The position numbers and the translations under genes were made by a program. A stretch of 32,000 nt of DNA from Rhodobacter capsulatus SB 1003 (GTDB taxonomy: Bacteria; Pseudomonadota; Alphaproteobacteria; Rhodobacterales; Rhodobacteraceae). The notes beneath the pieces are model-generated. The model was given only the letters and a program-made list of their open reading frames with translations, did not search any database and was not told where the DNA came from. The stretch's first letter is position 1; every line of letters begins with the position of its first letter. This document shows, piece after piece, positions 4,819-27,356 of this stretch. The DNA lies in assembly GCF_000021865.1 (NCBI RefSeq), contig NC_014034.1, positions 2,760,001 to 2,792,000 of the forward strand, in the 5' to 3' direction.

Positions 4819-4904
4819 GTGTGCCTCGCGTGTGCCGCAATGTGCACCGAGAGGGACGCAAAGTCACTGAAATCCTTGATATTCAGGACTTCAACTTGGG
4901 ATTA

Positions 4905-5019: not shown

Positions 5020-5460
5020 GGGGGGGGCAACGTTTTTTTCGTCGCCCGGAAACATGTCTTCATCGACCGTTCCTGTCATCTTCATCAACCGCCCCTCTCG
5101 GCGTCAGGCGGGGGAAACGGGCGCGTCCCTTGGGCAAAAGGGCAATCGCGCCCGCAATCGCCTGCGCGCCCCGACGCCGGGTCCTCCGCGGGAACCGCGC
5201 GCGCAGCCCTCCGCCCCGGCCGTTCACGAAAACGTTTCCTGTCCGGGCGATGACCCCGTCGGCGCCGCAGCGGGGCGCGCGGCGAATCGCGCCCTCGCCC
5301 GTCGGGCCGACCGGGTCTCGCCGGGGCGGACACCCGCCGGGCCCGACACAAAGCTGAGGCAAATACTCATATTTATTTCTTGACGGATTTAGTCATGCAT
5401 GCGATCCCGATCCGGCCCGACAGCGGGCGACATGACCTTTCCAGCCCCGGAGGCCCTGCC

Positions 5461-6474: not shown

Positions 6475-6482
6475 GCCCGGCC

Positions 6483-8171
6483 ATGGCCGTGACCGATCTG
6501 GCCCCGCGCCTGCCCGGGCGCCTGCGCCCCCGCCCCCTCCCGGGGGGCGGGTCGATCTGGCTTTGGGCGGCGGGCGGCATCGCCGCGCTGGTGCTGGCGC
6601 CGGTGGCGGCGCTGCTTTGGCAGGCGGCGCAGGGCTCGGACGGGCTTTGGGGCCATCTGTGGGCCTATGTGCTGGCGCCCGCGCTGGGGCAGACGGTGAT
6701 CCTGCTGGCCGGGGTCGGGATCGTCGTCACGGTTCTGGGCACCACGCTCGCCTGGCTGGTGGCGGCGCATGACTTTCCGGGCCGCAGGCTGCTGGATTGG
6801 GCGCTGCTTTTGCCGCTGGCCGTGCCAAGTTACATCATCGCCTTCGTCTATCTGGAGGTGACCCATCCGCTCGGCCCGCTGCAAGACGGGCTGCGGGCGC
6901 TTTTGGGCTACGCCTCGCCGCGGGAGTTCCGGCTGCCCGACATCCGCTCGATGCCGGGGGCGATTTTGCTTTTGGGGCTGGTGCTTTATCCCTATGTCTA
7001 CCTGCCGGTGCGGGCGATGTTCGCGATGCAGGCGGCGGGGCTTCTGGAGGCCGGGCGGATGCTGGGTTGCACGCGGCGGGGGCTGCTGTGGCGGCTGGCG
7101 CTGCCGCTGGCCCGTCCGGCGATCGCGGCGGGGGCAAGTCTGGCGCTGATGGAGACGCTCAACGACATCGGCGCGGCCGAGTTTCTGGGCGTGCGCACGC
7201 TGACCGTGTCGATCTATGCCACCTGGGTCACGCGCTCGGACCTGCCGGGGGCGGCGCAGATCGCGCTGGTCATGCTGGCCGTGGTGGCGGCGCTGGTGGC
7301 GCTCGAACGCTTCGCCCGGCGCAGGCAGCGCTTTGCGGGCGGGGCGCAACGGATGCGCCCGCTGGTGCCGGTGCGGCTGACGGGGCTGCGCGGCTTTGCG
7401 GCGCTGGGGCTGGGGCTGGTGCCGGTCCTGCTGGGCTTTGGCGTGCCGCTGGCCTGGCTTTTGTCCGAGGCCGTGACGCGGATCGCCGAGACCGGGATTT
7501 CCGCGCAGCTGCGCGCCGAGATGCGGGCGACGCTGCTTTTGGCGACGGCGGCGACGGTGGCGGTCGTGGCGGGGGGGCTGGTGGTGGCGCTGACGGCGCG
7601 GCTGTGCCCCGGCGGGCCGGGCGCGCTGATCGGGCGGCTGGCGAGCCTTGGCTATGCGATGCCCGGAACCGTGGTGGCATTGGGCGTGCTGGTGCCGGTG
7701 GGGGCGCTGGACCGGCTGCTCGACGCGGCGGCGCGGGCGGCTCTGGGTCAGGGCACCGGGCTGGTGCTGATCGGCTCGGGGCTGGCTTTGGGCTATGCCT
7801 ATCTGGTGCGGTTTCTGGCGATCGCTGTGGGCGGCTGCGAAAACGGTCTGGCGCAGATCCCGCGCGCGCTCGATCAGGCGGCGCGCAGTCTGGGCCATGG
7901 TCCGGCGGCCAGCCTGCGCCGGTTGCATCTGCCGCTTCTGCGCCCGGCCCTGATCGCTGCCGCGCTGCTCGTCTTTGTCGACACGATGAAGGAGCTTTCG
8001 GCCACGCTTCTGCTGCGCCCGCTGGGGGTCGAGACCTTGGCCACCCATCTTTATGGCGAGGCGGCGCGGGGCAGCCACGAAGACGGCGCCATCGCGGGCC
8101 TTGCCATCGTCGCCGTGGGCATCCTGCCGGTGATCGCGCTGGCGCGGCTGGCGCAGCGGCGGGGCGCCTAA
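6483..8171 (+). CDS. fbpB: Iron(III) ABC transporter permease, duplicated-domain FbpB type (562 aa)
   Basis: Highly hydrophobic, two-module permease 9 bp downstream of fbpA. The size and architecture are typical of FbpB/HitB. Confidence 0.85.
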   Translation: MAVTDLAPRLPGRLRPRPLPGGGSIWLWAAGGIAALVLAPVAALLWQAAQGSDGLWGHLWAYVLAPALGQTVILLAGVGIVVTVLGTTLAWLVAAHDFPGRRLLDWALLLPLAVPSYIIAFVYLEVTHPLGPLQDGLRALLGYASPREFRLPDIRSMPGAILLLGLVLYPYVYLPVRAMFAMQAAGLLEAGRMLGCTRRGLLWRLALPLARPAIAAGASLALMETLNDIGAAEFLGVRTLTVSIYATWVTRSDLPGAAQIALVMLAVVAALVALERFARRRQRFAGGAQRMRPLVPVRLTGLRGFAALGLGLVPVLLGFGVPLAWLLSEAVTRIAETGISAQLRAEMRATLLLATAATVAVVAGGLVVALTARLCPGGPGALIGRLASLGYAMPGTVVALGVLVPVGALDRLLDAAARAALGQGTGLVLIGSGLALGYAYLVRFLAIAVGGCENGLAQIPRALDQAARSLGHGPAASLRRLHLPLLRPALIAAALLVFVDTMKELSATLLLRPLGVETLATHLYGEAARGSHEDGAIAGLAIVAVGILPVIALARLAQRRGA

Positions 8172-10897: not shown

Positions 10898-10928
10898 GTT
10901 GAACTGTGCCTCCCCCCCCCCTAGATAT
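10898..10928 (+). promoter_or_regulatory. Putative heat-shock (sigma-32/RpoH-type) promoter of lon
   Basis: gTTGAAc at 10898-10904, then a C-rich block (C10, 10912-10921) running into CCTAGATAT (10920-10928). This resembles TTGAA ... CCCCAT/CCTATAT-type RpoH promoters. It ends 68 nt upstream of the lon ATG. Confidence 0.4.
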
Positions 10929-10995
10929 GGGGCATGGGAAGGGACGGGTTGCCAATCGCGGGACCAGTGCCTTTCGCCGCAAACAAGGACAGACA

Positions 10996-13407
<2,412 letters not shown>

Positions 13408-13430
13408 TCTGCCCCTGAAACGGGCTCTGA

Positions 13431-13462
13431 CGCGCCCCCCTTGCGGGGGCGCGTTGTTTTTT
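13431..13462 (+). terminator. Rho-independent terminator of lon
   Basis: cgcgccccc (13431-13439) pairs with gggggcgcg (13445-13453), with a 5-nt loop, followed by ttgtttttt. Confidence 0.85.
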
Positions 13463-13542
13463 CCGGGCCCGGCCTTGCACCGCATGGATTGTTGCGCCGT
13501 TGCGGCCTAACCTTGGCGTGACAGCAAACCGATGGGGCCGAG

Positions 13543-14008: not shown

Positions 14009-14083
14009 GGGCGATTAGCTCAGCGGTAGAGCGCTTCGTTCACATCGAAGATGTCAGCGGTTCAAATCCGTTATCGCCCACCA
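14009..14083 (+). tRNA. tRNA-Val (anticodon CAC)
   Basis: GGGCGAT-TA-GCTC-AGCGGTA-GAGC-G-CTTCG-TTCACAT-CGAAG-ATGTC-AGCGG-TTCAAAT-CCGTT-ATCGCCC-A-CCA. Confidence 0.95.
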
Positions 14084-14203: not shown

Positions 14204-15853
14204 TCAGGAGCCCGGCTTTTGCGTGTCGGGGGTGTCGGGCTTGCCGGTGCCGGGCAGGGTGACGCCGTGCTTTTCCATGTAGGGGCGGAAATAGTCGCGG
14301 AAGGCCTCGAAGCTTTCGGCCAGCATCAGGAATTCGGCGCGGTTCATCACCAGCACCTTGGTGTCCTCGATCGCATGCACCGAGGTCTTGCGTCGTGTCG
14401 CCCCCAGAATCAGCCGCTCGCCGAAATGGCCGCCGGGACCGATCACCCGCGTCGTCATCTCGCCCGTGTCGGGGTCGGTCCGCACCATCTGCACCGCGCC
14501 CGAAATCACCGTGTAGAACCCGTCCGAGCGGTCGCCCGCCTGATAGATCCGGTCGCCGGCGCGGAAATAGACATGCCGCATCGGCGGCTTCTGATAGGTG
14601 CGCAGCTGCACGAGGCTGCGCGCCCCCAAAAGATCCAGCGACCAGTTGATCATCACCCGGATGCGGGTGCCGATGCCGGGCAGAAGCGCCAGATAATAGG
14701 ACCGCCAGATGAACCAGGCCGGAAAGCCGGTGATGTTGCGCCCGAAAATGTCGGCGACGCCGCGTTTCGCCCCCAGCGAGGCCAGTGCCCCGCGCGAGCT
14801 GTAGGCAAAGACCCCGGGCGCCCGCCCCTTCAGCACGGCGGTGATGTTGGCGGCGACGCGCTTGGCCTCGCGCACGGCGAATTGCGCGGTGGGCGGGGCG
14901 AAATCGTTGCGCTCCGCGGCATCGTCCTTGAGAGGGATCAGCGCGCAATCGCCCAGCGCCCAGACATCGGTCCGGCCCTTGACGCGCAGGCTGCGATCCA
15001 CCGCGACGCGGCCCTTTTCCAAGGGCAGCCCCATGCGCAGGATCACCGGCAAGGGCGCATTGCCGATCGTGGCGACGATGGTGCGGGTGTCGATCACCTC
15101 GCCGTCGCTGGTCACCAGCTGCCGATGCGTGGCCGAGCGCACGCCGGTGCCCAGTTTCAGCTCGATGCCGTGGCGTTCCAGATGCGCGGTGGCGTAATCG
15201 GCCAGCTCTTTCGGCATCTCGTTCAGGATCCGCGGCGCATATTCGACCAGGAGCACGCGGACCTCGGACGGGTCGATGTTGGAATAGAACGGCAGCGAGC
15301 GGTCGAGCAGTTCCTTCATCTCGCCCACGGTCTCGACGCCGGAAAAGCCGCCGCCGACGACGGTGAAGGTCAGCGCCCCGCGCTTGGTGTCGGGCAGCGC
15401 GGTGACCTGCGCATGTTCAAGCTGCTCGATCACATGCTCGCGCAGACGCCGCGCATCCTCGAGCGTCTTCATCTTCAGCGCATGTTCCTCAAGCCCCGGC
15501 ATGCGCGAGAAATCCGCCCCCTGCCCCAGCGCGATCACCAGATGGTCATAGGGCACCTCGGTCGGGCGGCGCTGGATGCCCTGAAAGACGATCACCATCT
15601 TGCGCTCGAAATCGACGCTGTCGACGACGGCCTTGCGCACCTGCACGCCCTTGAGCAGGAAGCGCAGGGGCGAGACCGCATGCGCGGGCATGATCGAACC
15701 CGCGCCCACCTCGGGCAGAAGCGGCTGGAAGACGAAGTAATTCTCGGCGTTGATCAGCTCGATCTCGGCTTTGCGGCCCAGCCTGCGCGCAAGCGCGCGG
15801 GCCGTATACATGCCGCCGAAACCCCCGCCCAGAACGACGATCCGCGTGGCCAT
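14204..15853 (-). CDS. Type-II NADH dehydrogenase (NDH-2)-like FAD/NAD(P) oxidoreductase fused to a C-terminal cyclic-nucleotide-binding domain (549 aa)
   Basis: N-terminal Rossmann motif RIVVLGGGFGG and a second dinucleotide motif FTVVGGGFSGVE. The C-terminal roughly 120 aa are CAP-effector-like (FRAGDRIYQAGDRSDGFYTVISGAV ... IGPGGHFGERLIL...RKTSVHA). The second ATG (15853) was chosen because GGAGGG lies 6 nt upstream. Confidence 0.85.
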   Translation of the reverse strand: MATRIVVLGGGFGGMYTARALARRLGRKAEIELINAENYFVFQPLLPEVGAGSIMPAHAVSPLRFLLKGVQVRKAVVDSVDFERKMVIVFQGIQRRPTEVPYDHLVIALGQGADFSRMPGLEEHALKMKTLEDARRLREHVIEQLEHAQVTALPDTKRGALTFTVVGGGFSGVETVGEMKELLDRSLPFYSNIDPSEVRVLLVEYAPRILNEMPKELADYATAHLERHGIELKLGTGVRSATHRQLVTSDGEVIDTRTIVATIGNAPLPVILRMGLPLEKGRVAVDRSLRVKGRTDVWALGDCALIPLKDDAAERNDFAPPTAQFAVREAKRVAANITAVLKGRAPGVFAYSSRGALASLGAKRGVADIFGRNITGFPAWFIWRSYYLALLPGIGTRIRVMINWSLDLLGARSLVQLRTYQKPPMRHVYFRAGDRIYQAGDRSDGFYTVISGAVQMVRTDPDTGEMTTRVIGPGGHFGERLILGATRRKTSVHAIEDTKVLVMNRAEFLMLAESFEAFRDYFRPYMEKHGVTLPGTGKPDTPDTQKPGS

Positions 15854-15981
15854 GACACCCTCCATGCTGCTGCGCGAAGCATAGCCGAACCGCGCCGGAC
15901 CGCCAGAGCCTATTCACGCCCGCCCGGCCCCGCGATGCAGGAAGGTGACCAATGTCTTGCCGGACCGTCTTGCCAGGGGGC

Positions 15982-16057
15982 TGGTGCCGGCGGAGGGACT
16001 CGAACCCCCGACCCCCTGATTACAAATCAGACGCTCTACCAACTGAGCTACGCCGGC
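15982..16057 (-). tRNA. tRNA-Thr (anticodon TGT)
   Basis: The minus strand reads GCCGGCG-TA-GCTC-AGTTGGTA-GAGC-G-TCTGA-TTTGTAA-TCAGG-GGGTC-GGGGG-TTCGAGT-CCCTC-CGCCGGC-A-CCA. Confidence 0.93.
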
Positions 16058-16159
16058 CACGGTGCTGAAATAACCCTCCGGCCGCCCCGGCGCAAGACCG
16101 GACGGCGGGGCTTTGCCTTCCCGGCTTTGACCGCTATGGTGGCGCAAGGAGAACACCCA

Positions 16160-17047
16160 ATGCATCTGGTCTTTCATCTGGGCGCGCATGCCACCGATGA
16201 CGAACGCCTTGTCAGGACGCTGGCCACCAACCCCGAGGCGATGACCGCGGCGCAGTCCCATGCCCCCGCCCCCGCCGCCTATCGCATGGCGCTGCGCGAT
16301 GCGCTGATCGGGCTCCGCGGGCGGCCTGCCGATGCCGAAACGCAGGACCGGCTGCGCGCGGCCTGCCTGCGCGGCGCCCGCGGCCCGGTCGAGCGGCTGG
16401 TCTTCAGCTACGAGAATTTCCTCGCCCTGCCCGAACGCGCGATCGGCGCCAGCGGGCTTTATCCGGCCGCCGCCGACAAGCTGGTGCCGCTGGCCAATCT
16501 GTTCCCGCAGGACCGGACCGAGTTTCATCTGGGGCTGCTGGACCCTGCGCTGCTTCTGGTGGCGCTGGCGGCGCGGCAGCCGGGCCGGGATTTCACCGAG
16601 ATGCTCTGCGGCCATGCCCCCGAGGATCTGCGCTGGGGCCCGGTCGTGGCGCGGATGGCCGAGGCCGCGGACCGGGTCGGCGCGAAACTCGTGCTCTGGT
16701 GCAACGAGGATCTGCCGCTGCTGTTCCCCGAGGTGCTGCGGCAGATGGGCGGGCTGCCCGAGGCCGGGGCCTTGATGGGCGAATATGGTCTGGTCGAGGA
16801 GCTGATGCAGCCCGAGGGCGCCCGGCGGCTGCGCGCCTATCTGGCCAGCCACCCGCCGCAGACGGCCGAGCAGCGGCGCAAGGTGCTGATCGCGTTTCTG
16901 GAGAAATTCGCCCGTCCCGAGGCGCTGGTGGCCGATGTGGCGCTGCCGGGCGTCAGCGCGGATCTGGTGGCCGAGATCGCCGCGCGTTACGCCGCCGATC
17001 TGGCCGGGATCGCCCGCCTGCCGGGCGTGACGCTGATCACGCCCTGA
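16160..17047 (+). CDS. Conserved-looking hypothetical protein (295 aa), no family recognised
   Basis: SD aaggag lies 7 nt before the ATG at 16160, with GC3-rich codon usage. This is the real gene at the 3' end of the artefactual 998-aa track ORF. Confidence 0.65.
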   Translation: MHLVFHLGAHATDDERLVRTLATNPEAMTAAQSHAPAPAAYRMALRDALIGLRGRPADAETQDRLRAACLRGARGPVERLVFSYENFLALPERAIGASGLYPAAADKLVPLANLFPQDRTEFHLGLLDPALLLVALAARQPGRDFTEMLCGHAPEDLRWGPVVARMAEAADRVGAKLVLWCNEDLPLLFPEVLRQMGGLPEAGALMGEYGLVEELMQPEGARRLRAYLASHPPQTAEQRRKVLIAFLEKFARPEALVADVALPGVSADLVAEIAARYAADLAGIARLPGVTLITP

Positions 17048-17451: not shown

Positions 17452-17667
17452 ATGGACTTTCTGATCTGGGCAGGCGCGGCGGTCTCGCTTTTGGGGATGA
17501 TCGGCATCCTTTATTGCGCGGCGCAAGTGGCCAAGGCGAAAAAGGCCGGGCTGGACGATGCGGGCCTGCGCGCGGCGCTGCGCGGCATCGTGGCGATGAA
17601 CCTGGGCGCGCTTTTCGTTTCGGTGATCGGGCTGATGCTGGTCGTGCTGGGCGTGACCTTCAAGTGA
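17452..17667 (+). CDS. Small two-TM membrane protein (71 aa)
   Basis: SD ggagg lies 6 nt before the ATG at 17452. Two hydrophobic helices flank a basic loop (KAKKAG). Confidence 0.6.
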   Translation: MDFLIWAGAAVSLLGMIGILYCAAQVAKAKKAGLDDAGLRAALRGIVAMNLGALFVSVIGLMLVVLGVTFK

Positions 17668-19597
17668 AGCGCTCGGCCAGGGTCTGGCCGTCGCGGATGA
17701 GCGCATCGAGCAGCGCGGGCGGCGGCGGCGCCCCCTCGGCCGTCAGCGCGCGCAGCCGCTTGCGCAGCGCCAGCGCGCCGATCCGGTCGGCCTGAAACAT
17801 CGGCCCGCCGTGCGGCGCGGGAAAGCCAAGCTCCACCCCCGCCATCAGATCGATGTCGCCCGGCCGGAACGCCTCGCCCGTCTCCAGCGCGGTCAGGCCC
17901 GGCAGCGCCAGCTCGGCCAGGATGCGGGCCAGGATCTCGGTCTCGGACAGCGGGCGCGGCACGATCCCGGCCTCGGCGCGCAGCGCGGCCAGCGCCGTTT
18001 CGGCGGCTTCGCCCGTCCCCCCGCCCAGCACCGCCAGCGTCGCCAGAACCGGGCCCGGTTCGCCCCCGGCGGCGATCAGCCGGGGGAAGCTCCGCTCGGC
18101 GCCCAGCCGCGCGGCACGGGCAAAGGGCCCCTCGGCAAAGCCCCAGCGCGTCAGCGCCGCATCGACCGCCTGCGGCGCCGCCCCGGCCAGAACGCAGCGA
18201 TCGGCCGCGCCAAGCCAGGCCGCCTCGACCCGCAAGCCCAGCGCCCGGGCATGGATCACCCGCATCCCGCCCGCGCGCAAGACCGCCGCCAGCCGTGGCA
18301 GATCGGCCCGCCGTTCGGGGGTCGCCGCCCAGATCGCCGCAAGGCGCTGGCTGCGGTCGATGCCCAGCTCGCCCGGGCCGGGTGCCGTGCCCGAAAGCGC
18401 CAGAACCGCCCCCGCAGGCAGGGCCTGCCGCAGCCGGTCGCGCTCTGCGATGCTGGCGGGTTTCGCAATCACCAGATCAGTCGCCCCGAAAGCCTCGGGC
18501 GTGGCCACCGGATCCAGCCGCGCCCAATCGGCGGCGCGGCGGGCGGGATCCAGCTGCCCGGCCGCCACCGCCTGTTCCTGCGCCCGGGCGATCCCGGTCA
18601 GAAGCTGCGCCAGCGCCTCGGGCGCGGTGGTGCCGATCTGCACCGACAGCCCGCGCCGCAACAGCGCCCCCGCCTGCGCCACCGAAGGGTTCCAAAGCGC
18701 CACCCGGGCCACCGGCGCGACCGCCCCGGCCGGCACGGCGGCAAGCGTTTGCGTGGCCGCCCGCGCCCGGGCCAGATGGCGCAGCGCCGCCGCCGTCTCG
18801 CTGCGGGACAAATCGTCATAAGCCACCGCCTCGACATCCAGCGCGGCGGAAAGGGGCAGCAAAAGCGCCGCCTCGGCGACTTCGGCGATGCGGGCGATGG
18901 CGGGCAGATCGGCGCGCGCCGGATGGCGGGCCCGCGCCGCCGCCAGCGCATCAAGCGCCGCGCCCGGGTTCGAGAGCGCGCCCTCGCGCGGGGAAAACGG
19001 CGCCTCCGGGCCCAGCGCCGCGACGCGCAAGGCCTCGGTCAGGGCGGCGGTCTCGATCGTGCCCTCAGAGGCGACGGCATCGCACAGGCCCAGCGTCATC
19101 GCCTGCGCCGGATCCAGCACCCGGCCCGAGAGCAGCACCTCCAGCGCCGCCCCGCCCGCGCGGCGCAGCAGACGCACCGTGCCCCCCGCGGCGGGCAAAA
19201 GGTTCAGCCCCGCCTCGGGGCAGTGAAACCGCGTCGTCGCCAGCGCAAGGCGCAGCCCCGCCGCCTGGCTCAGCGCCAGCGCCCCGCCCGAGATCGTGCC
19301 CGACAGCACCGCCACCACCGGCACCGTCGCCTGCAAAAGCCGCGTGCACAGCGCCGCAAGTGTCGGCTGCTCGGGGCTGTAATCCTCGGCCGGGTCGATG
19401 CCGCAAGGCCAGCCCCCCGGGCCCGCGCGCAGAACGATCGCCTGCAGCCCCGGGGTGGCGAAAGCCTCGGTCAGCGCGGCGTCCAGCGCCCGGCGCAGCG
19501 CCGGATCGAAGCCGCAATCCTTCGGCCCCGCCGCGGCGCCCTCCAGCGTCACCAGCGCCACACCATCCCGCCGCTGCACGCTCACCCGTCTTGCCAT
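17660..19597 (-). CDS. Enoyl-CoA hydratase / 3-hydroxyacyl-CoA dehydrogenase (FadB/FadJ)-like fusion protein with degenerate catalytic motifs (645 aa)
   Basis: The N-terminal crotonase fold (VVAVLSGTISGGALAL...FHCPEAGLNLLPAAGGTVRL) is followed by a region collinear with the HAD domain. SD GGAGGGGG precedes the second ATG (19597). Confidence 0.7.
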   Translation of the reverse strand: MARRVSVQRRDGVALVTLEGAAAGPKDCGFDPALRRALDAALTEAFATPGLQAIVLRAGPGGWPCGIDPAEDYSPEQPTLAALCTRLLQATVPVVAVLSGTISGGALALSQAAGLRLALATTRFHCPEAGLNLLPAAGGTVRLLRRAGGAALEVLLSGRVLDPAQAMTLGLCDAVASEGTIETAALTEALRVAALGPEAPFSPREGALSNPGAALDALAAARARHPARADLPAIARIAEVAEAALLLPLSAALDVEAVAYDDLSRSETAAALRHLARARAATQTLAAVPAGAVAPVARVALWNPSVAQAGALLRRGLSVQIGTTAPEALAQLLTGIARAQEQAVAAGQLDPARRAADWARLDPVATPEAFGATDLVIAKPASIAERDRLRQALPAGAVLALSGTAPGPGELGIDRSQRLAAIWAATPERRADLPRLAAVLRAGGMRVIHARALGLRVEAAWLGAADRCVLAGAAPQAVDAALTRWGFAEGPFARAARLGAERSFPRLIAAGGEPGPVLATLAVLGGGTGEAAETALAALRAEAGIVPRPLSETEILARILAELALPGLTALETGEAFRPGDIDLMAGVELGFPAPHGGPMFQADRIGALALRKRLRALTAEGAPPPPALLDALIRDGQTLAERFT

Positions 19598-19723: not shown

Positions 19724-20047
19724 TCAGTGCCGGGCGGCGTGGTCGCGGCAGAAGGGGGTGGCGGGCAGAAGATCCAGCCGCTCCTCGGCGATCGGCTCGC
19801 CGCAGCTGACGCAATAGCCATATTCGCCGTCGTCCATCCGGGCCAGCGCCGCCTCGATCATCCGCAATTCGGCCCGCGCCGCATCGCCCAGATCCTGCAA
19901 CACCTCGTCCCCTTCACGCTCGGTCGCCATCTCGGCCCAGTCCTTGGCCTCATGCGTCTCGAACTCGTCCGAGATCTGCGCGATCCGCGCCGTCAGCGCC
20001 ACCTTGCGGGACAAAAGCTCCGCCCGCCGGAGATCAAGGGATTTCAT
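19724..20047 (-). CDS. DksA/TraR-family zinc-finger protein (107 aa)
   Basis: Coiled-coil N-terminus and C-terminal GYCVSCGEPIAEERLDLLPATPFCRDH. SD aggagg precedes the ATG at 20047. Confidence 0.8.
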   Translation of the reverse strand: MKSLDLRRAELLSRKVALTARIAQISDEFETHEAKDWAEMATEREGDEVLQDLGDAARAELRMIEAALARMDDGEYGYCVSCGEPIAEERLDLLPATPFCRDHAARH

Positions 20048-20132
20048 CGCATCCTCCTGTCCTGCCCGATCGAAACGCAAAACCCGGAAAAACGCCTTGA
20101 TTCAGGTCAATCGACAGGCCCGGAGACCCGGT

Positions 20133-21389
20133 TCAGAAGCTGGAGCCGATCTTCAGCGGCGGCAGATCGCCCGCCGGATCCTCGCCGCCGAACCCGTCCA
20201 GCGTCAGCCCCATCGGCGGCAGATCGTTGCCGCTGTCGAAACCGCCGAGGCCCCCCAGACCGCCCAGACCGCCCAGATCGCTGCCGCCCTCCAGACCGCC
20301 AAGGCCGCCCAGACCGCCGCCACTGCCGGGCAGCGGATCATAGGCCGGGGAATCGATCCGGTCGAGCGGCGCGCGCGGCCCGCTGGGCGCCGATTTCCCG
20401 GCAAAGGGGCTTGGCCCCGCCTCGAAGGGCGGCGGCACGACGCGGCGCACCTTCGGTTCGGGCGGCGCCATCAGCTCTTCTTCCTCGTGTTCGATCAGCC
20501 GCACCGCGCGCAGGCCGCGATGCTGCCCCAGCCGCGCGGCAGAAAGCTTGCGCCGCCCCACCCCCTCGACCGTCAGATTTTCCAAAGCGTCCGAGGGAAT
20601 CGGAATGTCCATCCCGGCGCGCAGCCGCATCACCGCCGCCAAGGGCAGCGTCACCCGATGCAGCACCGCATCAAGCTGCGCCGAAGCGCCCATGACCGAA
20701 TTTTCCAGCCGATGCGCCCATTCCGCGGCCTCGCGGTCGGGGCTGATCGGCCCTTCGTCGGCAAGCCCCGGCAGACGGCGCAGCGAATGGCCGCGCCCGT
20801 TCACCGGCACCGCCCAGATCAGCTTGCCCTTGCGTTCGAAGCCGACACCAAAGCCGATTTCCAGCTGCCAGAGCCGGTAGCCCATGTCTTCAAGCAACAG
20901 GCCAAGCGGGCGCGGATCATCCAGATAGGAGGCGTAACGGAACCCCCCCGCCCAAATGACGGCCTCGGTCTCGACCAGGCTTTCCTCGATCATCGCCAGC
21001 GTGGTGTCCAGAAAATCGACCACCATCGAGGCGTCGATCCGCGTCGGCTTGCGCGGCGGCGGCGGGCCCTTGCCCAGATTGCCGGTCGTCTGCACCTCGA
21101 TCAGCACCGAAAGCGTCTCGGGCGGCAGGGCGATGATGCCCATGCTTTCCTCGGGCCCCTCGATGATGGCGATCAGCGAAAACGGATCGATCGCCTCGGG
21201 CAGATCGGCCAGCGTCCGGCGCCCCTCGCTCACCTGCAGGACCTGCGCAGGCAGCTGGAACATGTCCTGCGCCACCTTCGAGACCGCCTGCACGATCGCC
21301 CGTTCGGCCGTGACCGGAGAGCCGTCCGCCGCGGGCCTGCCCGCCTCGGCCTTGCGCCGCATCACTGTCTGAAGCCGTTCTTCCGTCAT
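20133..21389 (-). CDS. FliM-like protein with a FliM/FliN (SpoA) C-ring domain and a Gly/Leu-repeat C-terminal tail (418 aa)
   Basis: The middle region resembles FliM (LIAIIEGPEESMGIIALPPETLSVLIEVQTTG...RKPTRIDASMVVDFLDTTL). It has a SpoA-like segment (VTLPLAAVMRLRAGMDIPIP...LTVEGVGRRKLSAARLGQHRGLRAVRLIE). The tail is GGGLGGLGGLEGGSDLGGLGGLGGLGGF plus two DLPP(M/L) motifs. The start at 21389 was chosen as the first ATG downstream of the upstream kinase stop; the SD is weak. Confidence 0.6.
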   Translation of the reverse strand: MTEERLQTVMRRKAEAGRPAADGSPVTAERAIVQAVSKVAQDMFQLPAQVLQVSEGRRTLADLPEAIDPFSLIAIIEGPEESMGIIALPPETLSVLIEVQTTGNLGKGPPPPRKPTRIDASMVVDFLDTTLAMIEESLVETEAVIWAGGFRYASYLDDPRPLGLLLEDMGYRLWQLEIGFGVGFERKGKLIWAVPVNGRGHSLRRLPGLADEGPISPDREAAEWAHRLENSVMGASAQLDAVLHRVTLPLAAVMRLRAGMDIPIPSDALENLTVEGVGRRKLSAARLGQHRGLRAVRLIEHEEEELMAPPEPKVRRVVPPPFEAGPSPFAGKSAPSGPRAPLDRIDSPAYDPLPGSGGGLGGLGGLEGGSDLGGLGGLGGLGGFDSGNDLPPMGLTLDGFGGEDPAGDLPPLKIGSSF

Positions 21390-21472
21390 CCCGTCCCGCC
21401 GTTTCCCTGTGCGTCGACGGATAAGGAATCGCAGATCAAGGTTTACAAAAGGTTGAGATCGGCGCCGGAACT

Positions 21473-24205
21473 TTACACTTTTTCGCGGTCTTTCCCGGGG
21501 CTTGCCCCGCCGCCCGCGGTCGGGCCCGCGCCCTGCCGCCGCAGCGGCAGCGTCACGCGGAAGGCCGCGCCGCCCTGCCCCGGCAGATAGTCGATCGAGC
21601 CGCCAAGATTGGCCATGATCTCGCGGCAGATCGCAAGGCCCAGCCCCGCGCCGCCCGCCTTCGAGGTGTCGGTCAGCCGCGAGAATTTCTCGAAGATCAG
21701 CCCCTGCGCGGCCTTGGGAATCCCCGCGCCATTGTCGCAAAAGTCGATCTGCACCAGCTTGCCGCGCTTTTTCACCTCGATGCGCAGCACGGCGCGTTCG
21801 GCGCCGCAATATTTGCGCGCATTCGAAATCAGGTTGATGAAGACCTGCACCAGCCGGTCGGTATCGGTGAAGACCGGCATGTGTTCGGAGGGAAAATCGC
21901 GGTCATAGCGGAAATCGCGCTCGGGCCGGGTGGACGACGCCGCCTGCACCGCGCGGTCGATCAGGTCATGCAGGTTCGCCACCGAGATGTTCAGCTGCAC
22001 CTTGCGGTTTTCCAGCACCGCAAGATCCAGAAGATCGTCCAGCAGACGGGTCAGGCGGCGGGCCTCTTCGTGAATGATTTCCGCATATTGCGCCCGCAGC
22101 GGCTCGGGCAGCTCGGGCTCCATCAGGATTTCGGAAAAGGCCCGGATCGAGGTCATCGGCGTGCGCAATTCGTGGCTGATCTGGCCAAGGAACGCATCCT
22201 TTTGCACCGAAAGCGCGGTCAGCTTCGCATTCGCTTCCGAGAGCGCGCGGGCGGTGCGGGCCAGTTCCGCCGATTTCGCCTCGAGCTGGGCGGAATATTC
22301 CTTGATCTCGGCCGCTTCGTTCGCCACCGCGAGCAGATCCTGCACCGAGACCGCCGCGCCGCCGGTCAGCTGCGAAATCATCGCATGCGCCGTCGCCGCG
22401 CCGACCGAACCGGCCAGTTGCCGTTCCAGCGCGGCCAGAAAATCCGGCGTCGGATCGGGCAGGAAACCGCGCTTGCCCTGCGCCGCCGCCTGCGCCTGAA
22501 AGAACAGCTGCGCCTCCTCGGCGCCCAGAATGCGCTGCGCCATCGACAGAAGATCCTCGGCCTCGGCCTGGGTGCGCGACCAGCCGCGCGCGCCCGGCCG
22601 CCCCTCGAAGACATTGACAAAGGCGACGCCCTGCAGCCGCTCCACCGGGCCGGGGAAGGACAGGATCGAAAACACCAGGAAAGCCAGGGTGTTGAACAGA
22701 AGGCTCCAGAGCAGCGCATGAAGCAGCGGATCCAGTCCCCGAATGCCGAAAAGCGCCTGCGGCCGCAGCCAGGTCAGGCCAAAGGGCCCCTCGGCCATCA
22801 GCTGCGCCGAAATCAGCCCGCTTTCGCCCACCGAGGGTAGGAAAAGCGCATAAAGCCAGATCGCAAAGCCGATCAGAAGTCCGATCGCCGCGCCCAGATG
22901 CGTCGCCCCGCGCCAGTAGATGCCGCCCAGAAGCGCGGGCAGCACCTGCGCCGCGCCGACAAAGGCGATCAGCCCGATCTCGGCCAGCGCCTCGGTCCCG
23001 CCCGAGAGCTTGTAATAGCCGTAGCCCATCGCCAGCACGAGCCCGATCGAGAGGCGGCGCGACATCAGCACAAGGCCGCGGACATCGCCGCGCTCGGCCG
23101 GTTCGTCGCGGTAGATCGCCAGCCACAAAGGCGTGACGACATGGTTCGACACCATGGTGGAAAGCGCGATGGCGGCGACGATCACCATCGAAGTGGCCGA
23201 GGAAAACCCGCCCAGAAAAGCCAAAAGCGCCAGCGTGCCGCGCCCCTCGGAGAGCGGCAGGGTCAGCACGAAAAGGTCGGGGTTCGTCCCGGCGCCCGGA
23301 TGGCCGAGCCCGACGACGGCGATCGGCACGACAAACAGGCTCATCAGCATCAGATAGGCCGGAAAGGCCCAGCTGGCGGTGCCCAGATGGCGCTCGTCGG
23401 TGTTTTCGACGACCAGCACCTGAAACATCCGCGGCAGCGTCAGCACCGCGGCGGCCGAAACGAAGGTGAGGCCCGCAAAGCGGCCGGGCTTCAGGCTCCA
23501 CTCGGCGATATCCGAGGCGTCGATCCGGGCAAGAATGTCGGAAATCCCCCCCGCGACGCCCCAGACGACCCAGATGCCCACGGCCAGAAGCGCCACCAGT
23601 TTCACGATCGCTTCCAGCGCGATGGCGGTGACGACGCCGTGGTGACGCTCGTTCGCGTCCAGATTGCGGGTGCCGAACAGGATGGTGAAAAGCGCCAGCC
23701 CCCCCGCGATCCAGAGCGCCGTCGCCGATTGGTCGGGCAGCGCCCAGGAGCCGGGCGTCTGCGCCGCAAAGACGCCAAAGGACAGCGTGACCGATTGCAG
23801 CTGCAGCGCGATATAGGGCGTGGCCGAGGCCACCGACATCAGCGTGACGATCACCCCCAGAAGGTTCGACTTGCCGTACCGGTTTGAAATCAGATCGGCA
23901 ATCGAGGTGACGCGCTGGGTCCGGCCGATCCGCACCAGCTTGCGCAAGACCCACCACCAGCCGACGAAGATCAGCGTCGGGCCCAGGTAGATGGTCAGGA
24001 ATTCCAGCCCCGAACGCGCCGCATAGCCCACCGCGCCGTAAAAGGTCCAGGCGGTGCAATAGATCGAGAGCGAGAGCGTGTAGACCCAGGGGCTGTGCAG
24101 GAAGCGCAACCGGCCCCGGGCGGCGCGGCGCTCGGCGACGAAGGCGATCAGGAACAGCACCAGCACATAGACCAGCGAAACGCCGACCAGCACGTCAAAG
24201 GGCAT
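21473..24205 (-). CDS. Sodium:solute symporter (SSF/SLC5)-domain-fused sensor histidine kinase, CbrA/CrbS-like (910 aa)
   Basis: The roughly 560-aa N-terminal polytopic region is SSF-like. It is followed by a coiled coil, the H-box GQISHELRTPMTSIRAFSEIL, N-box NLISNARKY, and G-boxes DNGAGIP and GGAGLGLAICREI. There is no receiver domain. Confidence 0.88.
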   Translation of the reverse strand: MPFDVLVGVSLVYVLVLFLIAFVAERRAARGRLRFLHSPWVYTLSLSIYCTAWTFYGAVGYAARSGLEFLTIYLGPTLIFVGWWWVLRKLVRIGRTQRVTSIADLISNRYGKSNLLGVIVTLMSVASATPYIALQLQSVTLSFGVFAAQTPGSWALPDQSATALWIAGGLALFTILFGTRNLDANERHHGVVTAIALEAIVKLVALLAVGIWVVWGVAGGISDILARIDASDIAEWSLKPGRFAGLTFVSAAAVLTLPRMFQVLVVENTDERHLGTASWAFPAYLMLMSLFVVPIAVVGLGHPGAGTNPDLFVLTLPLSEGRGTLALLAFLGGFSSATSMVIVAAIALSTMVSNHVVTPLWLAIYRDEPAERGDVRGLVLMSRRLSIGLVLAMGYGYYKLSGGTEALAEIGLIAFVGAAQVLPALLGGIYWRGATHLGAAIGLLIGFAIWLYALFLPSVGESGLISAQLMAEGPFGLTWLRPQALFGIRGLDPLLHALLWSLLFNTLAFLVFSILSFPGPVERLQGVAFVNVFEGRPGARGWSRTQAEAEDLLSMAQRILGAEEAQLFFQAQAAAQGKRGFLPDPTPDFLAALERQLAGSVGAATAHAMISQLTGGAAVSVQDLLAVANEAAEIKEYSAQLEAKSAELARTARALSEANAKLTALSVQKDAFLGQISHELRTPMTSIRAFSEILMEPELPEPLRAQYAEIIHEEARRLTRLLDDLLDLAVLENRKVQLNISVANLHDLIDRAVQAASSTRPERDFRYDRDFPSEHMPVFTDTDRLVQVFINLISNARKYCGAERAVLRIEVKKRGKLVQIDFCDNGAGIPKAAQGLIFEKFSRLTDTSKAGGAGLGLAICREIMANLGGSIDYLPGQGGAAFRVTLPLRRQGAGPTAGGGASPGKDREKV

Positions 24206-24208
24206 GGC

Positions 24209-24499
24209 TCAGCCCTCGCCGGTTTCGGGGCGGCTGCCCTCGGCCTCTTCCTCGGCGTCAAGCGCCGGGGCAAGACCACGCGCCAGCGCGGCGGCGGCCA
24301 GGATCAGCCCGACCCAGACCGCAAAAAGATAGATCATGCCGCGCGCGGTATCGGGCACCGGCGTCTCGCCCGGATGCCAGAGCATCGGCAGCAGGATCAG
24401 CACCAGCCCGACCAGCGGCAAAAGCCGGGCCGCATCCATCATCCGGCGGCGCCGATAGGAGCGCCGGGCCAGAAAAAGCGGCGTGCCGGACCCCGGCAT
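24209..24499 (-). CDS. Small two-TM membrane protein (96 aa), coupled between the response regulator and the SSF-kinase
   Basis: Its ATG overlaps the response-regulator stop (ATGA at 24497-24501 on the plus strand as catca). Its stop lies 3 nt before the kinase ATG. There are two hydrophobic helices. The position is analogous to the small subunits often encoded beside SSF transporters. Confidence 0.6.
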   Translation of the reverse strand: MPGSGTPLFLARRSYRRRRMMDAARLLPLVGLVLILLPMLWHPGETPVPDTARGMIYLFAVWVGLILAAAALARGLAPALDAEEEAEGSRPETGEG

Positions 24500-24927
24500 C
24501 AGCCCGCCTTGCCCGATCCTGACAAGGCCGGGCCCGCCAAAGCCGGGTCTGCCAGAACCGGGGCGGCGATCGCTTCAAGCGCGGCCAGCACATCGGCATT
24601 GGCGAAGGGCTTGGCCAGAAAGGCCGAAGCGCCCGCGGCGGCGGCGGCCTCGCGGTCGCGGACCTGCCCGCGCGCGGTCAGCATCAGCACCGGCGTGCGG
24701 CCCAGATCGGCATCGGCGCGCAGCTCGGCCAGAATTTCCAGCCCCGAACAGCCCGGCAGCATCAGATCCAGAATGACCGCCGTCGGCCGCAGCGTCGCGA
24801 TCCGGGCCAGAGCCGCGGCGCCCGAGGCCTCGACGGTCACATTCCAGCCCGCCCGCGTCAGGATGAACCGGATCGCCTCGGCGATGTTCGGCTCGTCCTC
24901 GACCAGCAGCACTTGCTTTTCGGCCAT
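24499..24927 (-). CDS. Single-domain (REC-only, CheY-like) response regulator (142 aa)
   Basis: LLVEDEP (acidic pocket), ILDLMLPG (phospho-acceptor Asp), MLTA (Thr) and LAKPF (Lys). No output domain. SD GGAGGAGG precedes the ATG at 24927. Confidence 0.88.
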   Translation of the reverse strand: MAEKQVLLVEDEPNIAEAIRFILTRAGWNVTVEASGAAALARIATLRPTAVILDLMLPGCSGLEILAELRADADLGRTPVLMLTARGQVRDREAAAAAGASAFLAKPFANADVLAALEAIAAPVLADPALAGPALSGSGKAG

Positions 24928-24987
24928 GATCGTCCTCCTCCCCCGGGCCAATCTATCCACGCTTGGCCCCGCGCTGTCAAACCGCCG

Positions 24988-26343
24988 TCAGCGCGCCGCG
25001 ATCAGCGAGGGCTCGCGCCGGCCGGCGCAGGCCAGCCGCGGGCAGACCCGGCAGGAGGTGCCGACCGGCCGGGCGGTCTCGAGGCGGCTGGTGGCGGGGG
25101 TGACCAGCATCATCGCCTCCATCAGCACCGGGGCGTCGAAACTGGCCGCGGCGCCCTCGGGCGGGCGGGGGGCGGCGAAGGCCCAGGACTGGAAGCGCTG
25201 CGGCAACCGCCCGGCCATGTCGAGCGTCAGCCGCAAGGGCTGCATCGGCCGCGAGAGCGCCTCGTAAAGCGGCCAGAGCGGGCAGCCCGCGGCCGAGCGC
25301 GGCAGGGCAAAACCGGGCAGCGGGCGGCGCAGGGTCAGCGTGCCCGAGCCGTCGCAGACGACAAGGCCAAGCGGCGGCAGGTTCGCCGCGCCCTCGGGCA
25401 GGGTGGCCAGACGGCGGAAGACCGCGGCCATCGGCGCGCCGAACCGCGCCGCCAGCCGCGCCGGGTCCAGCCCGGTCTCGCTCAGCGCGGCCAGAAACGG
25501 CTTGAGCGGCAGGATGCGGCTGTCGGCCAGCGCACGGGTCAGATAGGAAAGCGCCAGATCGCGCGCCGCCGAGGCGGCGAGTTCCGGGGCCTGGGCGATC
25601 AGCTCGGCCGGGTCGGGCGGATCGGGACGCTCGAAATCGGGCAGATGCCAGCCGCGCGCCGAAAGCCAGGCTTCGAGCTGGTCGAGCGGCGCGGCCAGCC
25701 CCGAATCCGTCGCCTCGATACTGTCAAGATAGGCCACCAGCCCCTCGGCCGCCGCGCTCAGCCGCAGGCTTTCCGAGGCGATCGAGGACAGGAACCGCGC
25801 CTGCCATTCCGGTTCGATATCCGGGGTTTCGACCAGAATCGCCGCGCCCGAGCGCAGCGAGGTCACCGCCGAAAGCACCTCGTGCAATTCGTCAAGCAGA
25901 TAAGGATCCTGCCCCATCCGTTCGGAATAGGTCTCCACCACCCGCTCCAGCGCCGCGAGGCGGGACTGGCGGGCGGCCAGAACCTTCGCCCAGCCGGGAA
26001 AGCGGCCGACGAATTCCTCGATCCGTTCCAGCTCGGAGGGGTCGATCAGCGCGCCGACGGCATCGCCCGTGCCCGTCCCCGCGCCACCGGCCACCCCGGC
26101 CGCAGCCTCGCGCAGGGCTTCGAAAAGCGCGCTTTCGGCGCCTTCGGACAGCGCCACCGGCGCGACGCCCAGCGCCTTGGCAAAAGTGTCGAGCAGCGGC
26201 TCGGAAACCCGGCGCCGGTTGTGTTCGATCAGGTTGAGATAGGCGGCCGAAATGCCGACCGCGCGGGCCAGATCGGCCTGCCGCAGTTTCAGCGTCAGCC
26301 GCCGTTCCCGTATCCGCGTCCCCGTCAGGGCAGACCGTGCCAT
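24988..26343 (-). CDS. XRE-family HTH regulator of the ScfR/RamB/PrpR-like type (HTH plus ImmA/IrrE-like plus DUF2083-like C-terminus, 451 aa)
   Basis: The N-terminal HTH is LRQADLARAVGISAAYLNLIEHNRRRVS. It has a long middle region and a Cys-containing C-terminus (CDGSG..., CPLW..., CRVCPRLACAGR), as in short-chain acyl-CoA-responsive regulators. Confidence 0.7.
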   Translation of the reverse strand: MARSALTGTRIRERRLTLKLRQADLARAVGISAAYLNLIEHNRRRVSEPLLDTFAKALGVAPVALSEGAESALFEALREAAAGVAGGAGTGTGDAVGALIDPSELERIEEFVGRFPGWAKVLAARQSRLAALERVVETYSERMGQDPYLLDELHEVLSAVTSLRSGAAILVETPDIEPEWQARFLSSIASESLRLSAAAEGLVAYLDSIEATDSGLAAPLDQLEAWLSARGWHLPDFERPDPPDPAELIAQAPELAASAARDLALSYLTRALADSRILPLKPFLAALSETGLDPARLAARFGAPMAAVFRRLATLPEGAANLPPLGLVVCDGSGTLTLRRPLPGFALPRSAAGCPLWPLYEALSRPMQPLRLTLDMAGRLPQRFQSWAFAAPRPPEGAAASFDAPVLMEAMMLVTPATSRLETARPVGTSCRVCPRLACAGRREPSLIAAR

Positions 26344-26412: not shown

Positions 26413-26475
26413 CTTCGGAAATACAAAGCGATTCAACACGCCCCGGCCGGTTGCGCCGGGTTTTCGCGGCCGATG

Positions 26476-26543
26476 CCACGCGACACTGGGGGCCACGCGA
26501 CACTGGGGGCCACGCGACACCCGGGGCCACGCGATACCGGGGC
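26476..26543. repeat. Four tandem 17-bp repeats (ccacgcgacactggggg x2, ccacgcgacacccgggg, ccacgcgataccggggc)
   Basis: Head-to-tail units at 26476-26492, 26493-26509, 26510-26526 and 26527-26543. They are intergenic, between the lipoprotein stop (26574) and the ScfR-like start (26343). Confidence 0.9.
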
Positions 26544-26573
26544 GCCAGGGCGCGGCAGGGCCCCGCCCAGCGA

Positions 26574-26729
26574 TCAGCAGGGGTTTTGCACCGTCACGCT
26601 CGAGAGCGTCGACAGGTCGGACACGCCGCCTTCGCATTTTTCGGGCGCTTGCGTGCAGCCCGCAAGGGCGGCAAGCGCCACAGCGGCAACAAGGGCAAGC
26701 GACGCCTTGCGGGTGGATGTGCAGGTCAT
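26574..26729 (-). CDS. Small lipoprotein (51 aa), absent from the supplied ORF track
   Basis: Hand translation gives MTCTSTRKASLALVAAVALAALAGCTQAPEKCEGGVSDLSTLSSVTVQNPC. It has the lipobox LAGC, and SD GGAGGAGG lies 6 nt upstream of the ATG. Confidence 0.6.
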   Translation of the reverse strand: MTCTSTRKASLALVAAVALAALAGCTQAPEKCEGGVSDLSTLSSVTVQNPC

Positions 26730-26837: not shown

Positions 26838-27293
26838 TCAGTCGAAACTGCGGAACCGCGCGCCATAGGTGACGGCTTTCTGCGAACACAGATCCATCGC
26901 ATATTGCAGCCAGACCGAGGCTTTCTGCCCGGAGCCCTGCTTGTCGACCGAGAGTTTCGAACGCCCCTGCGCGATCGCCGGGCCCATGTCGGCGTCGATG
27001 TCGCGCAGCCGCTTGACCCAGAACTGCGCCGCCTCCTCGAAATAGCTGCCCGGCGGCGCGCCGCTGGACACGATCGACTGCGCCACGGTCAGGCAATAGC
27101 CCGCCTCGACATCCTGGTTGGGGGTGTTGAACAGATGTCCCGAGGGCGCGGCGAACTGGCTTTTCCAGACCCCCCAGAACAGGCCCGCGACCAGCAGCAA
27201 AAGCGCGGGCCCGCCCCCCCAGACCAGAAGCGGGGACAGCTGCTCCTCCGGGTTGACGCGCGGTTTCGATTTCTTGCTGGCAGTCGTGGGCAT
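26838..27293 (-). CDS. Membrane-anchored hypothetical protein (151 aa)
   Basis: SD GGAGG precedes the ATG at 27293. It has a basic N-terminus, one TM helix (LLVWGGGPALLLLVAGLFWGVW) and a soluble domain with no recognised family. Confidence 0.55.
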   Translation of the reverse strand: MPTTASKKSKPRVNPEEQLSPLLVWGGGPALLLLVAGLFWGVWKSQFAAPSGHLFNTPNQDVEAGYCLTVAQSIVSSGAPPGSYFEEAAQFWVKRLRDIDADMGPAIAQGRSKLSVDKQGSGQKASVWLQYAMDLCSQKAVTYGARFRSFD

Positions 27294-27356
27294 GGCATCC
27301 TCCGCCCCCAGAATGGCGCAGAATGGTTGAGAATCTGCCAACGGCGCACAGGAATG

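Follow-up and report, generated by a model that had tools for sequence, protein, structure and literature searches.

In the present study we analysed a 32,000-nucleotide (nt) stretch of Rhodobacter capsulatus SB1003 (contig NC_014034.1, positions 2,760,001 to 2,792,000), referred to below as the window, in which seven consecutive open reading frames (ORFs), rcc02589 to rcc02595, all lie on the minus strand. They encode an XRE-family regulator of the ScfR type, a receiver-only response regulator, a small protein with two transmembrane helices, a CbrA-type SLC5-domain sensor histidine kinase, the flagellar switch protein FliM, a short DksA/TraR-family protein and a FadB-like protein. A first-pass annotation of these genes had read them as one co-directional cluster, with the hypothesis that the kinase signals through a CheY-like receiver to a FliM-like scaffold. 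Our results lead to a different conclusion. The block probably represents conserved synteny of at least four separately controlled units, not one phosphorelay, and nothing yet shows that the seven genes form one pathway. What is said here on gene identity, fold and synteny, on how the cassette separates from fliM and on the separate regulation of the orthologues comes from our own analyses or from the papers cited.

Layout of the block

Gene numbers were assigned through published tags, with rcc02578/79 as the Fe(III) ATP-binding cassette (ABC) system at 5380-8171 and rcc02590 as dksA2. The supplementary table of the published FnrL study maps rcc02591-95 onto names and RSP_ orthologues: it lists rcc02591 as FliM, rcc02592 as a Na+/solute symporter/histidine kinase (RSP_0169), rcc02593 as RSP_0170, rcc02594 as the receiver (RSP_0171) and rcc02595 as the XRE protein (RSP_0172). 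The block and its control elements are as follows (aa, amino acids; bp, base pairs).

24988..26343, minus strand: rcc02595, XRE-family regulator of the ScfR (short-chain fatty acyl-CoA regulator) type, with HTH_3 and ScfRs domains; orthologues RSP_0172 and Dshi_1405
24499..24927, minus strand: rcc02594, receiver-only response regulator, 142 aa, with Response_reg as its sole domain; orthologues RSP_0171 and Dshi_1406
24209..24499, minus strand: rcc02593, small protein with two-transmembrane topology, 96 aa, placed as CbrX is; orthologues RSP_0170 and Dshi_1407
21473..24205, minus strand: rcc02592, CbrA-type SLC5-domain sensor histidine kinase, 910 aa, no receiver domain; orthologues RSP_0169 and Dshi_1408
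21441..21456, minus strand: putative CtrA-box-like element TCAACCTTTTGTAAAC, 17 nt past the kinase stop codon and ~60 nt ahead of the fliM start
20133..21389, minus strand: rcc02591, fliM, flagellar C-ring switch protein, 418 aa, with a Gly/Leu-rich disordered C-terminal tail, assigned by fold and synteny; orthologue Dshi_1409
20097..20110, no strand assigned: FnrL binding site TTGATTCAGGTCAA in the 85-bp fliM-dksA2 gap, the only exact match in the window
19724..20047, minus strand: rcc02590, dksA2, short DksA/TraR-family protein, 107 aa, with DksA-like_N and zf-dskA_traR domains; orthologue RSP0166
17660..19597, minus strand: rcc02589 (tag inferred by counting), FadB/FadJ-like protein with a degenerate dehydrogenase half; ECH_1/ECH_2 at residues 41-208

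All seven genes were re-found on the sequence with the gaps first reported (60, -1, 3, 83, 85 and 126 bp), and the domain identities held in Pfam and NCBIfam searches with small corrections. The range originally given for the block, 19724-26343, contains six of the genes, and the FadB-like gene falls outside it. The junctions from receiver to small protein to kinase are tight, as had been described; the overlap between the first two, called ATGA at the outset, is in fact a TGATG junction of 1 nt, and the small ORF ends 3 nt ahead of the kinase ATG. A GGAGGA Shine-Dalgarno sequence lies 7 nt ahead of the receiver ATG at 24927. A scan for promoters and terminators between the genes of the block returned nothing useful.

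The four-gene cassette is separable from fliM

Neighbourhood conservation was followed in 80 genome loci that were gathered through the FliM family and scanned by tblastn with the window proteins; counts upstream of fliM refer to the 65 of them in which the upstream flank reaches 6 kb or more. The kinase gene lies directly upstream of fliM in 57 of these 65, and one more locus has a short insertion between the two. Among the 57 kinase-fliM loci the receiver gene is found in 55, the small ORF in 54 and the XRE regulator gene in 48. On the downstream side, a DksA-like gene follows at 45/67 loci and a FadB-like homologue occurs within 5.5 kb at 54/67. The FadB-like gene is not at the Dinoroseobacter shibae or Paracoccus locus, and synteny of dksA2 and the FadB-like gene is confined to part of the Paracoccaceae. 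A block of five genes (XRE regulator, receiver, small protein, kinase and fliM) is also present in Paracoccus ferrooxidans and, in the same order, in D. shibae (Dshi_1405, XRE, 431 aa; Dshi_1406, receiver, 121 aa; Dshi_1407, 106 aa; Dshi_1408, kinase, 897 aa; Dshi_1409, fliM, 349 aa). Since the kinase-fliM pair occurs in Paracoccaceae, Paracoccus and the roseobacter D. shibae, its adjacency is order-wide. The neighbourhood comparison that had been proposed for the block thus found it kept far beyond chance among related genomes.

The four genes upstream of fliM also occur on their own. Two Phaeovulum genomes hold the cassette intact and away from fliM; in one of these assemblies the cassette (L083) and fliM (L036) lie on different contigs, and the fliM copy has retained its upstream box. 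Furthermore, the same four-gene order is found in four genera of the Hyphomicrobiales, Neorhizobium (L086), Devosia (L088), Pelagibacterium (L089) and Mesorhizobium (L090), where fliM is absent and the downstream genes are unrelated. Each of these cassettes consists of an ScfR protein (HTH_3, Peptidase_M78 and ScfRs), a receiver, an ORF of 76-95 aa and a kinase of ~910 aa. In all four, a five-gene Liv-type ABC operon lies divergently beside the cassette. Its binding protein shares 76-88% identity from genus to genus, suggesting that the substrate is a specific one and has been conserved. A COG0683/branched-chain ABC gene likewise lies just ahead of Dshi_1405 in D. shibae. The four-gene cassette is a cohesive unit, separable from fliM.

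Related sensor domains and kinase-receiver pairs extend further. The best 120 homologues of the kinase were all at least 73% identical to it, and more distant taxa were reached through plasmid records and with the Neorhizobium protein as query. Identity of the kinase is 65-88% across the Paracoccaceae, and its SLC5 part has counterparts at 44-54% identity in Paracoccus, Neorhizobium, Azospirillum, Cupriavidus and an Azoarcus EAL-domain protein. On plasmid 1 of Paracoccus denitrificans PD1222 (L085, 626365-631784), a paralogous set of small ORF, SLC5 kinase (42% identical) and receiver-only regulator is flanked by genes for a DUF294-type nucleotidyltransferase and a PAS-exonuclease, a non-flagellar context.

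The receiver had been taken for the kinase's only partner, from which it followed that it must act on FliM. This argument fails because the cassette has a constant ScfR-type partner, which accompanies it even without fliM in Phaeovulum, Neorhizobium, Devosia, Pelagibacterium and Mesorhizobium, because pairs of a kinase and a receiver-only regulator exist free of fliM, and because the receiver resembles those of PhoB and OmpR more closely than CheY.

Identity of FliM and separate control of fliM and dksA2

The product of rcc02591 had been labelled a FliM-like scaffold, but the protein is flagellar FliM itself. Sequence models capture it in part: FliMN_C matches at residues 232-300 (E=1.3e-7, 31.9 bits against a cut-off of 23.8), TIGR01397 matches the C-terminal part only at 34.8 bits against a cut-off of 219.6, and the Pfam FliM family gives nothing at E<0.1. 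The fold is more telling. In an AlphaFold2 (AF2) model built on 16 homologues, residues 30-200 have predicted local distance difference test (pLDDT) values mostly of 85-95, and the SpoA domain is modelled with moderate confidence. The best Foldseek matches of this model are full-length Salmonella FliM chains from cryo-electron microscopy of the C-ring (E ~1e-14 over ~280-300 columns; 8UMD_C, E=7.6e-15), followed by the FliM middle domains 2HP7 and 4FHR (TM-score 0.75-0.77, root-mean-square deviation 2.8 A), and FliM chains and middle domains outrank FliY, CheC and CheX. A 9/18/36-nt periodic coding repeat at 20241-20321 encodes the GGL-rich part of the predicted disordered tail, whose length varies strongly among orthologues and which some of them lack.

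Papers on Cereibacter sphaeroides and D. shibae place fliM and fliG apart from the flagellar gene clusters, and the flagellar cluster of Phaeobacter inhibens holds no counterpart of Agrobacterium fabrum or Rhodospirillum rubrum FliM. The Cereibacter members of our FliM family sit between the RSP_0166 and RSP_0169 orthologues. RSP6099 is reported to have been identified as the FliM of the Fla2 flagellum by del Campo and colleagues in 2007; it may belong to the rcc02591 family, and the position of the Cereibacter members fits this. Because of its full FliM fold, the literature on orphan fliM genes and the published FliM annotation, we conclude that rcc02591 is a genuine orphan fliM of the vertically inherited Rhodobacterales flagellum. 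It shares with the other orphan genes (the Fla2 fliM of C. sphaeroides; Dshi_1409) the full architecture, a position outside the flagellar cluster, the upstream neighbours of Dshi_1409 and a CtrA-type box. In contrast to them, it scores under the Pfam and TIGRFAM FliM thresholds, has no LSQxEIDxLL motif and carries a long, variable Gly/Leu-rich tail.

Three observations bear on whether the block is one co-regulated unit: fliM has a CtrA-type box of its own, dksA2 has its own FnrL site, and expression of the D. shibae orthologues diverges. Each of them speaks against a single unit. The box TCAACCTTTTGTAAAC, in the 83-bp gap between kinase and fliM, runs on into CTTGATCTG (21432-21456), and the extended motif TTTGTAAACCTTGATCTG, searched for with at most 5 mismatches, lies 53-140 nt (mostly ~60-65 nt) upstream of fliM in 61 of the 80 loci. 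It also precedes fliM in five loci that have no upstream cassette (L022, L034, L036, L042 and L045). The half-sites of the box are spaced as in CtrA sites, at 11 bp; its Cereibacter azotoformans version reads TCAAC-N6-TCAAC, and D. shibae CtrA sites have the form TTAA-N7-TTAAC. A strict search for TTAA-N7-TTAA with at most 1 mismatch found nothing near fliM, so that the box was seen only through its conservation across loci. Judged from these sequence features, TCAACCTTTTGTAAAC may well work as a CtrA site, and the fliM gene is CtrA-activated in C. sphaeroides.

Expression data for the D. shibae orthologues separate fliM from the cassette. In arrays of ctrA, cckA and chpT mutants, Dshi_1409 (fliM) has a log2 fold change of -1.7 to -2.3 (~4-fold), and Dshi_1405-1408 are at 0 to +0.44. 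Similarly, after induction with acyl-homoserine lactone, fliM alone rises (log2 2.7) and Dshi_1405-1408 do not.

For dksA2 the evidence comes from R. capsulatus itself. The TTGATTCAGGTCAA site is the one reported for RCC02590 dksA2, with 28-fold enrichment in chromatin immunoprecipitation sequencing and activation by FnrL (PMC4634722). The C. sphaeroides orthologue, RSP0166, is likewise FnrL-activated through a near-identical site (PMC4634722), which makes the two alike with no difference of note; RSP0166 fails to complement Escherichia coli that lacks dksA, and deleting it has no phenotypic effect (PMC4010833). The dksA2 product is identical to ADE86320, annotated as 'DnaK suppressor protein-2', and NCBIfam DksA models score it under their cut-offs.

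The FadB-like protein was called degenerate from the start, and the domain searches agree. Pfam found no NAD-binding 3HCDH_N match and a weak C-terminal 3HCDH match, and the FadJ model scores 95 bits against a cut-off of 869. The product is probably a non-dehydrogenase. Divergent from this gene lies a conserved gene with no family match (16100-17047, plus strand), syntenic in most Paracoccaceae loci at 36-90% identity.

Components of the cassette

The kinase (sequence identical to ADE86322) has a core of HisKA at residues 669-732 (E=8.3e-18) and HATPase_c at 781-889 (E=1.5e-23). Its membrane part had been described as an SSF domain, and this stands as an SLC5 identity: residues 6-462 match the SLC5 domain of Pseudomonas putida CbrA in PDB entry 10ED, with E=1e-68 for the single sequence and 1.4e-79 for a family profile. 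The Pfam SSF family (PF00474) gives no match at E<0.1, and none of the classical SSF transporters in the PDB reaches E=0.001. Thus the SLC5 assignment is based on homology to the CbrA domain of 10ED, not on Pfam SSF. The 10ED alignment ends at residue 462, ahead of the STAC region; an AF2 model of the full kinase was unusable (mean pLDDT 45), with helices at 549-613 only.

Published residues of the CbrA pocket and Na2 site were mapped through this alignment and are written as CbrA/window kinase. Six of the nine are identical (Y51/Y49, W55/W53, F71/F69, Y75/Y73, F406/F415 and the Na2-site lysine K196/K202), S53/T51 is conservative, and A56/T54 and F248/S250 are changed. On the strength of these residues the SLC5 domain looks proton-coupled and CbrA-like, with a largely aromatic pocket that may take an amino-acid-like solute. 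Because of the A56 to T and F248 to S changes, the ligand need not be histidine.

A close known parallel is CbrX-CbrA/CbrB of Pseudomonas, whose kinase is an SLC5-STAC-PAS 'transceptor'. The window kinase has the homologous SLC5 domain, with the proton-coupling Na2-site lysine and most of the aromatic pocket kept, and a core of dimerization/histidine phosphotransfer (DHp) and catalytic (CA) domains. Its gene follows directly on a tightly coupled ORF for a small membrane protein of two helices. CbrX itself is a two-helix membrane peptide that is translationally coupled ahead of CbrA and co-purifies with it. The product of rcc02593 (identical to ADE86323) resembles CbrX by position and topology, and a small ORF holds the equivalent position in all related cassettes examined. 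Unlike CbrX, however, it has no sequence similarity to that peptide: searches of PDB chains, CbrX among them, returned no similar sequence, and neither Pfam nor NCBIfam gave a family match above curated thresholds. The kinase differs from CbrA in that the stretch from residue 660 to the DHp domain is too short to hold a PAS domain. Additionally, its partner is receiver-only, in contrast to the NtrC-type CbrB, and an ScfR-type regulator belongs to the window cassette.

CrbS/CrbR and RpuS/RpuR, which serve acetate or pyruvate use, are similar in tying an SLC5-domain kinase to the uptake or use of a carbon source, and RpuS/R is an alphaproteobacterial SLC5/STAC kinase system that regulates a transporter. 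CrbS and RpuS are hybrid kinases, each fused to a receiver and paired with a LuxR-type DNA-binding regulator, whereas the window kinase has neither. In all related cassettes the partner regulator consists of Response_reg only, with no equivalent of NtrC-type CbrB or LuxR-type CrbR/RpuR adjacent. In Azoarcus sp. KH32C, plasmid pAZKH encodes a CbrA-like SLC5 domain (45% identity over 614 residues) on an EAL-domain protein with no kinase (L087, 202401-205343), so that the sensor module has been reused there with a cyclic-di-GMP output.

The receiver (identical to ADE86324) matches Response_reg at E=3.4e-25 in Pfam, with no other domain. It had been called CheY-like, but its best NCBIfam matches are PhoB/OmpR-type receivers at 89 bits, against 59 bits for CheY. 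On reading of the sequence it retains the phospho-acceptor Asp, the Thr, the aromatic switch residue and the Lys. A receiver-only regulator with a role in motility has been described in C. sphaeroides: Osp is a 120-residue single-domain protein that binds and inhibits CckA and thereby controls Fla2 motility (PMC9430884). The two are alike in being receiver-only proteins of Rhodobacterales, and Osp affects a Fla2-type motility. The rcc02594 product is not Osp, which is another gene beside a TetR regulator (PMC9430884); Osp also differs in acting unphosphorylated and in having no cognate kinase encoded beside it.

The XRE regulator (identical to ADE86325) has the N-terminal HTH_3 (E=1.3e-9, 38.3 bits) and C-terminal ScfRs (E=1.1e-9, 38.8 bits against a cut-off of 24) found in the ScfR proteins PccR, RamB and MccR. 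It differs from these in lying far under the RamB cut-off (a partial match of 96 bits against 700 for the equivalog model) and in its middle part, which is taken up below. The operator of PccR, an ScfR protein, TTTGCAAA, is not enriched within the window. None of the characterised ScfR proteins is known to share its locus with a two-component system.

Upstream of the regulator gene, a 17-bp tandem repeat, GCCACGCGACACCGGGG, spans 26475-26547 (4.2 copies, 91% matching), 132-204 bp from the start codon; it is missing from all 83 loci compared, other R. capsulatus strains included. A 51-aa ORF (26574-26729, minus strand) with a lipoprotein-like signal and lipobox (LAALAGC) and no family match sits between the regulator gene and that of a conserved 167-aa membrane-anchored protein (26838-27341).

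Proposed function and competing explanations

We propose the following scheme for the block. The cassette kinase is probably a sensor of a transported small solute, which would bind in its CbrA-like, proton-coupled, largely aromatic pocket; the kinase would then phosphorylate the adjacent receiver. Given the constant companions of the cassette, a ScfR-type DNA-binding regulator and, outside the Paracoccaceae, a divergently transcribed Liv-type ABC transporter, it would most likely serve to regulate how nutrients are taken up and catabolised, in the manner of CbrAB, CrbSR and RpuSR. Three elements of this scheme are inferred: the class of ligand, the transfer of phosphate from the kinase to its receiver, and how the receiver reaches an output. 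Within the same block, fliM would be driven by a CtrA-type promoter of its own, located in the 83 bp that follow the kinase gene, and dksA2 encodes an FnrL-activated, anaerobically induced short DksA/TraR protein. The cassette is probably an old alphaproteobacterial unit for the control of uptake and catabolism, beside which an orphan fliM sits in the Rhodobacterales.

Several observations weigh against this proposal. The same-strand kinase-fliM adjacency, with gaps of ~50-240 bp, far outlasts typical non-operon adjacency across Paracoccaceae, Paracoccus and D. shibae. A terminator scan found no terminator-like structure between the two genes, so that read-through and some functional coupling are still possible. 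In none of the 80 Paracoccaceae loci is a Liv-type transporter adjacent. No partner has been demonstrated for the receiver, which lacks an output domain, and the ScfR match is weak, with the central IrrE-like Peptidase_M78 domain undetected by Pfam in the R. capsulatus regulator, although the Hyphomicrobiales cassette regulators do have such a domain. The FliM N-terminus lacks the CheY-docking motif LSQxEIDxLL and has in its place a conserved basic helix (Rhodobacterales consensus QTVLRRKAEAG, with K13 and A16 invariant; predicted at residues 3-16), so that the docking partners of this FliM are not predictable from E. coli. Finally, the link of the R. capsulatus fliM itself to CtrA is the CtrA-like box, the expression data being those of D. 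shibae.

These points leave room for a link to the motor, in which the SLC5 kinase senses a solute and the phosphorylated receiver docks on FliM in the C-ring, changing the speed, stops or reversals of rotation in parallel to CheY. The order-wide adjacency, the lack of a terminator before fliM, a receiver that has kept its phosphorylation and switch residues without an output domain, and a FliM whose conserved, atypical N-terminal helix and linker have the architecture of a docking peptide would all fit such a relay. However, the cassette is conserved without fliM in Phaeovulum and the four Hyphomicrobiales genera, the P. denitrificans plasmid carries a paralogous kinase and receiver-only pair away from flagellar genes, the D. 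shibae cassette is not co-regulated with fliM or the flagellar regulon, and the receiver is nearer to PhoB/OmpR receivers than to CheY. In C. sphaeroides, control of the Fla2 motor has been reported to lie with CheY1, CheY2 and CheY5. A screen of 13,000 transposon mutants of P. inhibens yielded no such kinase or receiver as essential for motility, which is a weak point since a modulator need not be essential. We therefore regard the motor relay as unlikely. In a more specific form, a CbrA-type transceptor of the Rhodobacterales would feed the motor through docking of the phosphorylated receiver on the basic N-terminal helix of the adjacent orphan FliM, so that metabolic state tunes rotation independently of CheY. 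We hold this to be quite unlikely; if true, an older uptake-control cassette would have been rewired in this lineage, which would account for the persistence of fliM beside the kinase throughout the order.

Motility could also be reached through transcription, with the receiver acting in an Osp-like manner on the CckA-ChpT-CtrA phosphorelay, so that nutrient status sets CtrA activity and with it transcription of fliM and the flagellar regulon. Osp provides a precedent for a single-domain regulator that inhibits CckA and controls Fla2 motility (PMC9430884), the published activating signals of CckA/CtrA are still unknown, with organic acids repressing the system, and a CbrA-like nutrient sensor beside a CtrA-controlled gene would fit. 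Yet direct evidence is lacking and Osp is a different gene beside a TetR regulator. The Hyphomicrobiales cassette, with its neighbouring ABC transporter, points to a metabolic role, and the constant presence of the ScfR-type regulator would be left unexplained. We consider this route very improbable. Together, the persistent adjacency, the missing terminator and the atypical FliM N-terminus keep a link to motility alive, whether direct or through CckA, and conserved synteny of separately controlled units is the reading we prefer.

Other features of the window

Outside the block, a likely integrated element at a tRNA gene spans 130-4979. It has a phage-type integrase gene (3394-4818, minus strand) adjoining tRNA-Asn (4905-4979, minus strand), a Bro-N/KilAC antirepressor gene (2378-3202, plus strand) and several ORFs without a family match. 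The gene at 14204-15865 (minus strand) encodes a type-II NADH dehydrogenase-like flavoprotein (Pyr_redox_2 and NDH2_C) with a C-terminal cyclic-nucleotide-binding domain, and is flanked by tRNA-Val (14009-14083) and tRNA-Thr (15982-16057). A Lon protease gene lies at 10906-13407 (plus strand), with a G+C content of 0.61-0.63, under that of neighbouring regions; the long ORF antisense to it (10921-13485) is spurious.

Implications

The first-pass annotation knew of no described system with this composition, and we found no description of the four-gene cassette in the searchable literature under rcc02592-95, RSP_0169-0172 or Dshi_1405-1408. The cassette, widespread in Rhodobacterales and Hyphomicrobiales, thus appears to be undescribed. 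It extends the class of SLC5-kinase 'transceptors' to an architecture without a DNA-binding response regulator. The block also serves as a caution for reading gene clusters, as its tight co-directional spacing masks three regulons (CtrA, FnrL and one more). The literature does not yet name the environmental signals that control the CtrA system of the Rhodobacterales and their vertically inherited flagellum, and the conserved CbrA-like sensor beside fliM is a concrete candidate for such a signal input.

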